From Candidatus Bathyarchaeota archaeon (GTDB lineage Archaea; Thermoproteota; Bathyarchaeia; 40CM-2-53-6; RBG-13-38-9): a stretch of 61,962 nt of DNA. Within the stretch, counting starts at the first letter, position 1, and every line of letters begins with the position of its first letter. Under the pieces are notes generated by a model. It saw nothing but the letters and a program-made list of their open reading frames with translations. It searched no databases and was not told the origin of the DNA. Location of the stretch: NCBI GenBank assembly GCA_026015185.1, contig JAOZGX010000114.1, forward strand, positions 1 through 61,962. The letters run 5' to 3'. Below, piece after piece: positions 51,751 through 61,750 of the stretch. A program made the position numbers and the translations under genes.

Positions 51751-52096
51751 ACTTAGATCTCCCCTAGGATCGGTTCGGAAGGATCTTGAAAGCTATAAAC
51801 GCTTAATGCATATTTTGCAATAGAGCTAGTATCATATTCTCTGCTATGTTTATTAGGGAATATTGTCGAAGCTAGTTGATTTTGATTTTTAGTTTTGAAA
51901 AATACTTGTTTCACTAACGAAATAAACGAAATCACCGAAAATACGGTCACCCAAGTTAATCACCTGATATCTGTCTATAACTCACTTTTCTTTGCTAATT
52001 GGAGATATATTAAGTTAACTCATAAATTACGAATATGTTAATTATTACATTCTAATTCTTCTTTATCCTCTCTTAGTTCATTTGCTATCCTAACGG

Positions 52097-52158
52097 GGTT
52101 CTGTTAACTTATCAAGTGATTGAATGTAAAAATCCTTCTTGTTAACTTTCGAGTGATG
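52097..52158. repeat. Left terminal inverted repeat
   Basis: GGTTCTGTTAACTT-29 nt-TGTTAACTTTCGAGTGATG. Confidence 0.85.
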
Positions 52159-52182
52159 GTAACGCGCATTAAAAAATAGGAA

Positions 52183-52806
52183 TTATTTTTGATTTATTTT
52201 TTTCAAATTAGAAAGAATTTTCAGTATTTGTTTGTCTAATCCTTCCATTAATACTAAAAGAATTTTATCCACATCAGCAAGATGTTTGGGAGGATATAGT
52301 GTACGTGAGTTCTCTCTGATTCCAATTTGAGTATTTAAGACTTCGATTAGATGATAGTTTTCTTCAATTTCCTTAAGTTGCTTATATTTTAGACGTGATA
52401 GAAATCCACTGATCTTTACTAGATCCCAAGCAGAGTTGTGAAGAAATATAGGCGATCCAATTACTTGCCTCTTTTCTTTGGCTATTGCAATATTTTTGTT
52501 ACACAATTCTTTATTCAACTCAATTATTCTTAAATTCTCTTTCAACTCAGTTAGAAGATTACCGATAACCTTCTGTTTCTCTTTAGACTCTCTTTTTCTA
52601 TCTCTCCAAATCTCCCAACTCATAGTAAGAATAAAACCAAAGATGGTAGCGCCCACTCCACTTAGGAATCCAAGCAAGTAATCATTGACCAACAAGAAAA
52701 GCCCAATGGCTAGTGTCCATAATATGATATTTGTTGCAAAGCGAATAAAAATCCTATCAACCGATTTTCTTATCGTGCCATTTCTTAGTAATGAATGATG
52801 CGACAA
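52183..52806 (-). CDS. Membrane protein (2 TM plus helical cytoplasmic domain), cassette passenger
   Basis: 207 aa. Hydrophobic helices at about residues 25-65, then a K/E-rich helical domain. Overlaps the upstream gene by 50 nt. Confidence 0.5.
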   Translation of the reverse strand: MSHHSLLRNGTIRKSVDRIFIRFATNIILWTLAIGLFLLVNDYLLGFLSGVGATIFGFILTMSWEIWRDRKRESKEKQKVIGNLLTELKENLRIIELNKELCNKNIAIAKEKRQVIGSPIFLHNSAWDLVKISGFLSRLKYKQLKEIEENYHLIEVLNTQIGIRENSRTLYPPKHLADVDKILLVLMEGLDKQILKILSNLKKINQK

Positions 52807-53434
52807 TTACGGAACTCAATAGACCAATTGCTATCAGATAAGGTGAAAGCACTTCCAACTTATTTACACTATAGAGATGCCCACCTACCGCAGATACTCG
52901 ATAGAAGCATCCGTAAGCTCTAAGCATAAATTGCGCATCACCATAGTCGAACCAAGTATGTGGCATAAATTCATGTGAGCGCAAAAGGGAAGGTGTATAT
53001 TCTGCATCGAGATCGAAACCAACAGTAAAACTGTCATCTGTCAAGACCTCTAATGCAAGGTAAAAGGAATCTACCACATGGATATCATATCCTAACAAAT
53101 CATAATATGACCAATCTCCTGTAACGGTTGGAATTATGGGTAAAGGTCCAAATATTACCGACTTTCCATCACTATGGAAAATATACAGGTTGAAGGGTTC
53201 TCCGTTGCTATACCAAATAAATAAAGCAACTCTCGATATCTCCCCACGATTGTAGTGTGGGGTTAGACTAAATTTCACACCATAATAATCGCCTGGCGAT
53301 TGACCACTTGCCCCATCAAATTCTCCATCATCATAAAACATCCATTTACAATCTTGTTGTGCATAAACGCTAGGTATGTTGGATATTAAACCAGAAATTA
53401 GAAGAACAATTGGTATGAAGATTTTTAATTCCAT
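52757..53434 (-). CDS. Secreted surface protein with VGG...PY-TM-basic C-terminus, cassette passenger
   Basis: Signal peptide. The C-terminus is AVGGHLYSVNKLEVLSPYLIAIGLLSSVIVASFITKKWHDKKIG. Confidence 0.55.
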   Translation of the reverse strand: MELKIFIPIVLLISGLISNIPSVYAQQDCKWMFYDDGEFDGASGQSPGDYYGVKFSLTPHYNRGEISRVALFIWYSNGEPFNLYIFHSDGKSVIFGPLPIIPTVTGDWSYYDLLGYDIHVVDSFYLALEVLTDDSFTVGFDLDAEYTPSLLRSHEFMPHTWFDYGDAQFMLRAYGCFYRVSAVGGHLYSVNKLEVLSPYLIAIGLLSSVIVASFITKKWHDKKIG

Positions 53435-53521
53435 TAATCCCCACCCCTTAATTACAATTAATGGTATAATTTATTTGTAATAATCAAATAGCATCAAATG
53501 AAAATATAAATGTCGTTATCT

Positions 53522-53583
53522 CATCACTCGAAAGTTAACAGGAGAGATTTCCTATCGCCGTCACGCTAGAAGTTAACAGAACC
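53522..53583. repeat. Right terminal inverted repeat
   Basis: CATCACTCGAAAGTTAACA-29 nt-AAGTTAACAGAACC. Confidence 0.85.
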
Positions 53584-53687
53584 CCTAACGGCCAGATTTG
53601 GATCCCATTCTCATACTTCATTGATGTTCACATCTAAGTTAATTCTTAATTATAACATACTGACTATACATATCTATCGAGTTCTAA

Positions 53688-54005
53688 ATGAATAATTCTC
53701 TAAGGATTGGAATTATTTCTGGTGCAATTGCTGGATTAATTGCGAGCATATTTGTCATTTATGTTAGCATACCTTTGATCTATGAATTAGGTTCTCATTA
53801 TTGGTTTTAGCGCGCGCGCTTTGAGCAGAGAGATTTTGATGGAGCAAATCAGCATGCCAAAAGCTCTATTGAACTCGTAAACATAGCATATACTAAAGAG
53901 GCCGATTTTATCTCCAAGATGAAGATGATAGCGGTTATCCTTGTTGGCTTGTTCATTGCAATTTCTTTAATTGTAGTTTGTAAAAGGAGATCGAGAAAAA
54001 AATAA
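53688..54005 (+). pseudogene. Small two-TM reading frame interrupted by one in-frame TAG
   Basis: MNNSLRIGIISGAIAGLIASIFVIYVSIPLIYELGSHYWF-TAG(53808-53810)-RARFEQRDF...MKMIAVILVGLFIAISLIVVCKRRSRKK*. The TAG is the first triplet of the TAGCGCGCGCGCT motif. Confidence 0.3.
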
Positions 54006-54015
54006 TTACTATTAC

Positions 54016-54237
54016 TCACTTATTATGCTTGAGTTTTTTTAAACTTTCTAAAGTCTTCTGTGTTGGAGCAAGCTTTGATCCCAACCTTGTTTCTAAATCA
54101 TCCAATAACTTTTCAAAAGCAGCCTTATCATTTTTGATTACCTATGTAGATTTAACATATTTCTGATCTTTTGAAGCAAGCTTAGATACCATTTTGGTTT
54201 CTAAAGCAACTAACAATCTCGTTAGGTTAATGTTCAT
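54016..54237 (-). pseudogene. Small repeat-containing reading frame interrupted by one in-frame TAG
   Basis: MNINLTRLLVALETKMVSKLASKDQKYVKST-TAG(54142-54144)-VIKNDKAAFEKLLDDLETRLGSKLAPTQKTLESLKKLKHNK*. The LET.(M/L).SKLA motif occurs on both sides of the stop. Confidence 0.25.
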
Positions 54238-60821: not shown

Positions 60822-60845
60822 CGCACCAAGGTACCCGACGACGAC
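60822..60845 (+). repeat. Copy of the tRNA-Leu 3' end plus trailer
   Basis: CGCACCAAGGTACCCGACGACGAC is 23/24 identical to the reverse complement of 23776-23799 (CGCACCAAGATACCCGACGACGAC). Confidence 0.85.
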
Positions 60846-60865
60846 GAAAACCAAGAAAACGGTGC

Positions 60866-60891
60866 TGTTAACTATCGGGTGATAGACGCAT
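60866..60891 (+). repeat. Solo copy of the inner TIR block
   Basis: TGTTAACTATCGGGTGATAGACGCAT compared with 52140-52169 TGTTAACTTTCGAGTGATGGTAACGCGCAT. About 22 matched positions with two 2-nt gaps. Confidence 0.6.
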
Positions 60892-60934
60892 ACTATTGAG
60901 TAAAAAAAGGGATCAAGCTAAAGTTCATTATTTG

Positions 60935-61564
60935 TTAAAGCTTATTCCTTTTCTTGATCATTACAGTCGCTGTTATAGCTACAATCAGGGCCACTAAAGC
61001 AATATGTGGCGCTACTACGGAAAGTCGGCTCGCGGGTATTGAATAACCGCCAACTGCATAGCGAGTCGCAGGAGAATATTGGATAACAGTGGGCTCTTCA
61101 TATTCAAGGGTATATTCGTAAGTATAAATTCCAACAAAGGTTTCGTCCCTATCAAATCTTATAACCGATGCTCCTTGGCCTTCACAGTGAATAGTTAAAG
61201 TTGCAAAGGTAGCACCACCCCATTCATCATCACATCCTACATAAAGCTCAAACCTACCTCCATCAGGGCTAAGGTCGGCATCACCGTCACAGTCACCATC
61301 TAAATATAATGTATAATCTACGATTTTCATATAATTGGTATCTACCACTACCACTAAGTCACACCAGTTAAATTCATCATCGGAATCAATAAGATCTATT
61401 TCTAAATCTACTTGGAATTTTGTACAAACTTGAACTTGAGGGGGGGCTCCATAAATTTCGACCGTACACTCTGCTCCATTTTGAGCATTCACGCTGGGAA
61501 AGGATAGCCCTAGAATACAAAGCGCTACCAAAAATATCGGAAGTATATATCTAAATTTCTTCAT
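60935..61564 (-). CDS. Secreted surface protein with VGG...PH-TM-basic C-terminus
   Basis: Signal peptide, Cys/Asp-rich ectodomain, C-terminus AVGGYSIPASRLSVVAPHIALVALIVAITATVMIKKRNKL. Confidence 0.55.
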   Translation of the reverse strand: MKKFRYILPIFLVALCILGLSFPSVNAQNGAECTVEIYGAPPQVQVCTKFQVDLEIDLIDSDDEFNWCDLVVVVDTNYMKIVDYTLYLDGDCDGDADLSPDGGRFELYVGCDDEWGGATFATLTIHCEGQGASVIRFDRDETFVGIYTYEYTLEYEEPTVIQYSPATRYAVGGYSIPASRLSVVAPHIALVALIVAITATVMIKKRNKL

Positions 61565-61716
61565 TATTATCGGCTAAATAATTATTCAAAATCTTTCCCA
61601 TATTAAAAACTTATTATCATCAATAGTGATAGCTCTACTCTTTTATTTATGGTTGCTCGAATTTTGTATCAGCGTAATCCAATTATTTTTTTATCGCTTT
61701 AGATAATTACCATTTG

Positions 61717-61750
61717 TGTGTGTGTGCGCACCAAGGTACCCACACACACA
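61717..61750 (+). repeat. (TG)n/(CA)n hairpin presenting the CGCACCAAGGTACC core in its loop
   Basis: TGTGTGTGTG (61717-61726) pairs with CACACACACA (61741-61750). The core CGCACCAAGGTACCC at 61727-61741 is identical to 60822-60836. Confidence 0.8.

Follow-up and report, generated by a model that had tools for sequence, protein, structure and literature searches.

What is a chromosomal segment that carries two genes, is bordered by long inverted repeats with a short direct duplication just outside them, and encodes no transposase? This question is raised by a cassette at positions 52097-53583 of a 61,962-nt stretch of DNA from Candidatus Bathyarchaeota archaeon (contig JAOZGX010000114.1; "the window" hereafter means this whole stretch), which a first-pass annotation had described as the footprint of a transposition event by a non-autonomous element with passenger genes. 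The repeats mark both termini of an archaeal IS6-like element without a transposase (IS, insertion sequence), and the cassette is very probably a non-autonomous derivative of an archaeal IS6-like "transporter IS", of the type called mobile insertion cassette (MIC). The earlier description is thereby upheld with regard to the ends and the duplication, but has to be revised with regard to the target, which was a piece of foreign carrier DNA and not the native chromosome.

Ends and gene content of the cassette

The element and its parts are arranged as follows.

52089-53591: element together with its duplication
52089-52096: left 8-bp target-site duplication CCTAACGG, directly outside the tip
52097-53583: element of 1,487 bp, bounded by inverted two-block ends of about 62 bp
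52097-52158, plus strand: right inverted repeat (IRR), the end next to where the 3' end of a transposase gene would lie
52097-52120: outer site of the IRR, GGTTCTGTTAACTT followed by ATCAAGTGAT
52140-52158: inner site of the IRR, TGTTAACTT followed by TCGAGTGATG
52159-52176, minus strand: possible relic of the last transposase codons
52183-52695, minus strand: passenger gene 2, 170 amino acids, one N-terminal transmembrane (TM) helix, remainder all-helical
52757-53434, minus strand: passenger gene 1, 225-amino-acid secreted protein with signal peptide, beta-rich domain and C-terminal anchor
53435-53521, minus strand: leader and putative promoter
53522-53583, minus strand: left inverted repeat (IRL), inverted copy of the two-site end (outer site 53583-53570, inner site 53540-53522)
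53584-53591: right 8-bp target-site duplication CCTAACGG, directly outside the tip

The outer block GGTTCTGTTAACTT (52097-52110) recurs as its exact reverse complement at 53570-53583, with 16 of 16 positions matching if the additional GG/CC is counted, and the inner block TGTTAACTTTCGAGTGATG (52140-52158) recurs in the same way at 53522-53540. The latter is a 19-mer with 0.02 expected occurrences in the window, even if three mismatches are allowed, and a repeat search extends it to 29 nt at 90% identity. Both blocks are separated by 29 nt at either end of the element, the two spacers being identical to each other at about 13 of the 29 positions. The core common to both blocks, TGTTAACTT, occurs four times in the window, always within the element ends, compared with 0.95 expected occurrences. 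Both tips read GGTTCTGTT, and the 8-mer CCTAACGG lies in direct orientation outside each of them. All of these repeats, spacings and positions had been reported by the first-pass annotation and were recovered when re-read from the sequence.

These features bear on the idea that the two ends originate from separate events, be it as solo ends or as halves of distinct elements, and came to lie around chromosomal genes, with a merely coincidental match of the two CCTAACGG copies. Such an origin would be in line with the differing spacers and with the frequent occurrence of solo ends in the family described below, whose ends can also adjoin one another. However, a direct 8-bp repeat at exactly both tips is expected by chance in only 1 of 65,536 cases, both window ends have the same specificity bases (AAGTGAT/GAGTGAT), and the enclosed genes are not native, the whole region being missing from close relatives. 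A separate origin of the two ends is therefore regarded as very improbable.

Read in the direction of its genes, the element consists of IRL (53583-53522), leader, gene 1, gene 2 and IRR (52158-52097). The leader between IRL and gene 1 contains ACATTTATATTTTC, which resembles a TATA box, and the stretch AGATAACGACATTTATATTTTCATT is identical in locus L011. The protein encoded by gene 1, whose C-terminal tail reads VGGH...NKLEVLSPYL-TM-KK, has few homologs, and those with 82-86% identity are encoded behind the same end in loci L006-L008 and L011-L012. Gene 2 codes for a protein with 139 distant relatives of about 170-180 amino acids; a longer reading of 207 amino acids from a TTG codon at 52806 is possible, but 170 amino acids appear more likely. 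Thus, the secreted surface protein of the earlier description stands, while its 207-residue protein with two TM helices is more likely the shorter one with a single helix. Neither cargo protein matched a family in scans of Pfam, NCBIfam and PADLOC, exact look-ups of both passenger proteins and of one flanking housekeeping protein returned no other record, and single-sequence AlphaFold models of the two cargo proteins reached pLDDT values (predicted local distance difference test) of 41 and 46, which is too poor for a fold search.

The tail of the gene 1 product is of a type, VGG[H/Y]..NKL[E/D]VLSPYL..-TM-KK, that is common to small secreted proteins which are otherwise unrelated (P0002, P0004 and P0005); it matches no curated family and looks like a lineage-specific surface-anchoring signal. 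The corresponding anchor-coding stretch at 52781-52894 is conserved at 89% nucleotide identity in the gene for the unrelated surface protein P0004 (L009, positions 1887-2000, 114 nt), and it is within this stretch that the homology among the relatives of the cassette stops. It may plausibly represent a recombination joint.

An archaeal IS6-like family with multi-site ends

The closest relatives of the cassette were found in loci L006 and L007, where the same two-block end with identical blocks precedes a homolog of gene 1 (82% identical protein) and a gene for a 371-amino-acid transposase follows about 1 kb downstream of the surface-protein gene. Between the window and L006, 33 of 33 block positions are identical, compared with 17 of 29 in the spacer and 83% in the coding sequence. 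The L006 transposase, the only copy scored on that model, reaches 134.2 bits with NCBIfam NF033587 (IS6 family; cut-off 125). It contains an IS1-like zinc ribbon and a SWIM-like CxC...CxH motif seen by eye, and SWIM (PF04434) is recorded for several of its homologs. In L011 and L012, the same end, with a spacer shorter by 10 nt, precedes the same gene, and an unrelated flank starts exactly at the GG tip.

A scan of 185,579 species-representative genomes with the pattern GGTTCTGTWAACTT-N(15-35)-TGTWAACTT yielded 20 loci, compared with about one expected by chance according to our own estimate. About 16 of these are archaeal (Thaumarchaeota/Nitrososphaerales, Bathyarchaeia, Methanocellaceae and Nanoarchaeia), and the four bacterial matches show no other family features. 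An inverted partner end is present at five loci; four of these pairs enclose a homolog with 41-47% identity to the L006 transposase, and perfect 8-bp direct repeats flank four of the five.

L016: 2,153 bp, duplication ACAACTAA
L020: 3,318 bp, duplication CTATTGGG
L031: 3,959 bp, duplication CTTTTTTC
L017: 515 bp, internal-deletion derivative, duplication CGCAGTCC
L018: paired ends, no duplication

The search for further copies of the ends, which had been recommended as a check, has therefore been answered by some 16 archaeal loci, including complete elements with an IS6-type transposase and 8-bp duplications. Complete elements span 2.1-4 kb and code for a transposase of about 370 amino acids composed of a SWIM finger, a zinc ribbon and an IS6-type DDE domain; BLAST identities of the homologs in L016, L018, L020, L031 and L040 to the L006 enzyme range from 41 to 68%. 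The transposase family comprises at least 1,699 clusters at an E-value of at most 1e-40, and its members are labelled by NCBI as "IS6 family" or "IS1/IS6 family" transposases. Since the transposase-bearing elements hold further open reading frames (ORFs), cargo appears to be usual in this family: a transposase and passenger genes lie within one end pair in L018, L020 and L031, and L006 and L040 show one end with both kinds of genes. The passenger gene adjoining the transposase gene in L040 (186-953) is proteasome-like (PF00227), and a 249-amino-acid ORF with a similar beginning occupies the same position in L020 (5942-6691). No inverted partners of ten further archaeal ends and of a repeat array in L027 were found within the stretches fetched. 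This array (positions 1004-1079 of a Nanoarchaeia contig) consists of tandem 25-nt units, each starting with GGTTCTGTTAACTT, and looks more like a series of end-like sequences than like the ordinary end of an element. Among viral contigs, the specific end pattern had no match, and the five matches of a simple two-core pattern were all due to chance, with neither a GG tip nor a specificity tail. In two of the four duplication-bearing elements, another family end, whose specificity bases differ, is found at a distance of exactly 8 bp, tip facing tip (L016, 840-1000; L020, 6650-6810). There, the new element's duplication directly adjoins a resident end, pointing to preferred insertion next to ends that already exist.

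The recurrence of these ends also bears on the view that the inverted repeats have a local regulatory or structural role, for instance as operators or as the recombinase sites of an invertible switch, instead of being transposon ends. The right repeat indeed lies upstream of a surface-protein gene and is conserved together with it in the relatives, GTTAAC is palindromic, and surface-protein genes are typical targets of inversion switches. However, in distant archaea these ends delimit elements that carry a transposase and have 8-bp duplications, the similarity to L011 stops precisely at the GG tip, close relatives lack the region, and the nearest ORFs have housekeeping functions, with no recombinase gene adjacent. 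A purely regulatory or structural role of the repeats is thus hardly credible, and the evidence favours transposon ends.

An alignment of the family ends shows that the two blocks, whose presence at each end had been correctly recognised, are not unrelated parts of a bipartite end. A conserved (GGTT)CTGTTAACTT with variable bases is followed by a second CTGTTAACTT with the same variable bases, so that each end represents a tandem of directly repeated sites, two or in some cases three, each about 20 bp long and with 7-9 element-specific bases. Three sites at one end are observed in L019 (2020-2163) and L031 (5440-5550). The sites are usually spaced by 28 nt; the window and L006 have a spacing of 38 nt, which is longer by one helical turn. 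The variable 9-mers of outer and inner sites agree at 6.57 of 9 positions within ends and at 4.60 of 9 between elements, and none of 10,000 permutations reached the observed agreement within ends. Covariation of this kind would be expected if an element-specific transposase bound the sites in pairs, and the repeated sites probably represent such binding sites, as judged from their sequences.

The orientation of the element follows from L015 and L028, in which the ORF of the transposase extends across the inner block (QNASYEPKVN and QNASHQTKVN, respectively) and is terminated by the TAA within the GTTAAC of the outer block, identifying the end it runs into as the IRR. Neither the element nor the rest of the 62-kb window encodes a transposase; for want of one in the element, it is regarded as a derivative and not as an IS. 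Read together with the inner block, the codons at 52159-52176 give ...NARYHHSKVN, a match that, being short, only suggests a remnant of the transposase C-terminus; loss of the transposase may have followed the insertion. The L006 transposase ends with ...QNAKTKVI and a stop where the inner block is degenerate, and the outer block has decayed there; this copy is probably immobile.

The IS6 family is recognised by its short inverted repeats, which have GG at the tip, an internal cTGTt and a G at position 7, and by 8-bp direct repeats (PMC7986276; PMC6807381). The comparison with known IS ends that had been suggested earlier leads to this family, as the window tips show the GG, the cTGTt and the G at position 7 and the duplication is 8 bp long; the "caaa" motif is absent. 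The end of IS257, GGTTCTGTTGCAAAGTT (PMC4856351), is identical to the window tips over its first nine bases. The closest annotated plasmid transposases are those of the clostridial ISCpe7 from the long zinc-finger IS6 clade, with about 31% identity over residues 58-358, and the ISCpe7 ends have TCTGTTAAGTT in common with the archaeal tips. A weak second block may be present about 25 nt inside the ends of the Clostridium perfringens ISCpe7 copy in L041 (TTCAACTTTTGAG / GCTTAACTAT; positions 480-540 and 1720-1760), which hints that multi-site ends may be older than the archaeal group. Differences to IS6 are nevertheless evident: IS6 elements are compact (700-890 bp, compared with 1,487 bp of the window element and 2.1-4 kb of its autonomous relatives) and have a single repeat of 14-20 bp, whereas the archaeal ends measure about 55-62 bp and contain the repeated site two or three times. 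The archaeal transposases add an N-terminal SWIM finger, none being encoded in the window element, and cargo is the rule in the archaeal family but the exception in IS6. A 2021 review lists one cargo-carrying IS6 member, ISDsp3, and two IS6-derived MITEs (miniature transposable elements with inverted repeats) of 227 and 336 bp (PMC7986276). Neither repeated subterminal sites nor cargo-only derivatives are described in the reviews of the family (PMC7986276; PMC6807381), and Harmer and Hall considered that archaeal "IS6" members may not belong to it (PMC6807381).

Among the known kinds of non-autonomous elements, the MIC, as defined in PMC3129680 and exemplified by MIC231 of IS231 from Bacillus cereus, corresponds best in structure, the window element likewise having IS-type inverted ends, passenger ORFs, no transposase and a target duplication. 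It differs from these examples in its archaeal, IS6-like parent family and in that one copy of the cassette is known, while the end together with gene 1 is found in two other contexts (L006 and L011). For MIC231, trans-mobilisation and multiple copies have reportedly been shown, and MICs of the Tn3 family are said to exist in Xanthomonas. The IS6 MITEs are similar as non-autonomous derivatives keeping both ends, and L017 with its 515 bp is such a derivative in the archaeal group, whereas the window element is not short and non-coding but has two ORFs with homologs. It is not itself a transporter IS (tIS), as the transposase is absent from between its ends. By analogy, the multi-site ends may be likened to those of Tn7 and Mu, which carry several transposase-binding repeats per end, albeit with unrelated transposases and with no accessory proteins evident in the archaeal family. 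An integron attC cassette was rejected as an assignment: GTTAACT has a C where the consensus GTTRRRY requires a purine, and the ends are inverted instead of direct. No integrase gene is present among the neighbouring ORFs.

The chromosomal site and the foreign carrier

Orthologous loci were found by protein searches followed by contig look-ups. The genes next to the element are archaeal housekeeping genes coding for aspartokinase, aspartate-semialdehyde dehydrogenase, shikimate-pathway enzymes and ABCE1, and the named aspartokinase homologs with about 55-60% identity belong to Bathyarchaeia. Much closer aspartokinase homologs, with 99 and 93% identity, are encoded in L033 and L034-L039, respectively. 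These relatives, which are 98 and 92% identical, lack the region with both its genes and its repeats: the gap between the aspartokinase and ABCE1 genes amounts to about 615 nt without a cassette, compared with 2,651 nt in the window. Orthologous loci with the same two genes but without the repeats, which would have contradicted the reading as a mobile element, were not seen among these relatives.

When the sequences are compared base by base, the breakpoints fall at 52025/52026 and 54207/54208, which gives 2,191 extra nucleotides in the window. Since the missing piece exceeds the element, the CCTAACGG duplication records transposition into foreign carrier DNA, and not into the native chromosome. 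The insertion has the following parts.

52017-52025: AACTCATAA, imperfect 9-nt direct repeat at the left border of the 2,191-nt insertion
52026-52088: left carrier DNA, 63 nt, absent from relatives and without match elsewhere
53592-54207, plus strand: right carrier DNA, 616 nt, containing a broken ORF for a small membrane protein
54208-54216: AACTAACAA, its imperfect counterpart at the right border of the insertion

In the relatives, the unoccupied site shows a single AACTAATAA, and the foreign carrier DNA adds up to 679 nt besides the element. Uninterrupted carrier DNA at the cassette site would read ...TTTGCTATCCTAACGGCCAGATTTGG.... The broken carrier ORF extends from 53688 to 53810, where it meets a stop codon, and then continues in frame to about 54005; the TAG runs straight into a (GC)5 tract (TAGCGCGCGCGC, 53808-53820), and the frame remains open for about 65 codons beyond. 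With the flank of L006, the start region of this ORF (53641-53735) shares 76% identity. The 2,191-nt insertion has no terminal inverted repeats, and three candidate explanations for its presence found no support. Carrier flanks representing diverged duplicates of native intergenic DNA were rejected, because local alignments score no higher than those with shuffled sequences. Import by homologous recombination from a divergent donor is unsupported, the mismatches to L033 being only mildly raised near the junctions. A single att-type crossover as the source of the 9-nt repeat was rejected because its two mismatches lie in the reverse of the arrangement that such a crossover would leave.

Another islet specific to this strain, about 911 nt in size, lies within 60822-61747 (about 60837-61732). 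It is likewise absent from the relatives and encodes a secreted protein of 209 amino acids with a C-terminal anchor. Direct 15-nt repeats of CGCACCAAGGTACCC border this islet, the right copy lying inside a GTGTGTGTG...CACACACAC palindrome. The relatives have one copy of CGCACCAAGGTACCC and differ from each other immediately downstream; the site may be a recombination hot spot. Two traces of the family, which share the same orientation, are found inside this islet.

60861-60884, plus strand: solo, slightly degenerate family end GGTGCTGTTAACTATCGGGTGATA
61600-61693, minus strand: relic of a transposase C-terminus, KNNWITLIQNSSNHK and a stop (61693-61652), followed by an eroded IRR

The relic KNNWITLIQNSSNHK is identical at 8 of 10 positions to the C-terminal motif NKWITLIQNA of L020. 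Because of this solo end and the transposase relic, the family can be regarded as resident in this lineage.

Origin and meaning of the cassette

Autonomous members of the family are laid out as IRL, passenger gene(s), transposase gene and IRR, with the transposase ORF running into the IRR. The cognate transposase would bind to both sites at both ends and pair the ends, the 8-bp staggered cut at insertion would leave CCTAACGG on each side, and the transposition may follow an IS6-type cointegrate pathway. The window copy kept the IRL, the putative promoter region, two passenger genes, the IRR and what may be a few relic transposase codons. As its own transposase is absent, it would be movable only with one from elsewhere, and mobilisation in trans would depend on a matching enzyme.

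Several observations weigh against this reading. The segment missing from the relatives amounts to 2,191 and not 1,487 nt. A single copy of this cassette is known from the exact look-ups of both passenger proteins, and no transposase is encoded within the 62-kb window searched. The search for an autonomous partner, proposed by the first-pass annotation, did reveal transposase-bearing relatives, but the sole transposase found beside ends of the same specificity is that of L006 with its decayed IRR, and no intact cognate partner was identified. Gene 2 is unrelated to the second gene of L006, so that an extra recombination event must be assumed. Finally, the scan pattern fixed the conserved blocks, and some of their invariance across the loci thus follows from the search itself; covariation, duplications and transposases do not depend on the pattern and provide separate evidence for the family.

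Some of these points may also be accommodated by a remnant formed in place, i.e. a complete element that inserted, produced the CCTAACGG duplication and later lost its transposase, leaving a dead relic that never moved in transposase-less form. The left end seems to keep the last transposase codons, L006 still has a transposase gene downstream of the same IRL and surface-protein gene, the cassette is known in a single copy, and other parts of the window contain eroded family relics. In contrast, all 33 block positions are intact at both ends while the spacer and the neighbouring DNA have diverged, a state that fits continued selection for mobility without proving it. Moreover, a simple deletion is not enough, because gene 2 is unrelated to its L006 counterpart. 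A remnant formed in place therefore has to be taken seriously, although it appears somewhat less probable than not, and the reading as a MIC-type derivative of an IS6-like transporter IS is the one to be preferred.

It is tempting, although rather doubtful, to go further and regard the cassette as part of a large, essentially undescribed branch of archaeal IS6-like elements (at least 1,699 transposase clusters from Bathyarchaeia, Thaumarchaeota, Methanocellales and others). Its multi-site ends may contain an element-specific address code against cross-mobilisation among co-resident lineages, cargo would be carried routinely, and new copies would land with preference right beside resident ends. 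Together with a second process that moved the 2.19-kb carrier, such elements would have built both strain-specific surface-protein islets of the window.

The value of these findings is descriptive and the current view of transposition stands; transposase-less cargo-carrying elements are of an already known kind. An anonymous pair of repeats has become a classifiable mobile element, and an abundant archaeal IS6-like group receives its first anatomical description, with ends of two or three sites, co-varying bases, a transposase ORF ending in the IRR, frequent cargo and 8-bp duplications. The motif GGTTCTGTTAACTT-N(15-35)-TGTTAACTT may serve as a boundary marker in metagenome-assembled genomes of Bathyarchaeia and Thaumarchaeota, revealing elements, solo ends and cargo-only derivatives that are missed by gene-based IS callers. 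For the biology of this uncultured lineage, the finding means that surface-protein genes are located on transposon-derived, strain-variable islets.

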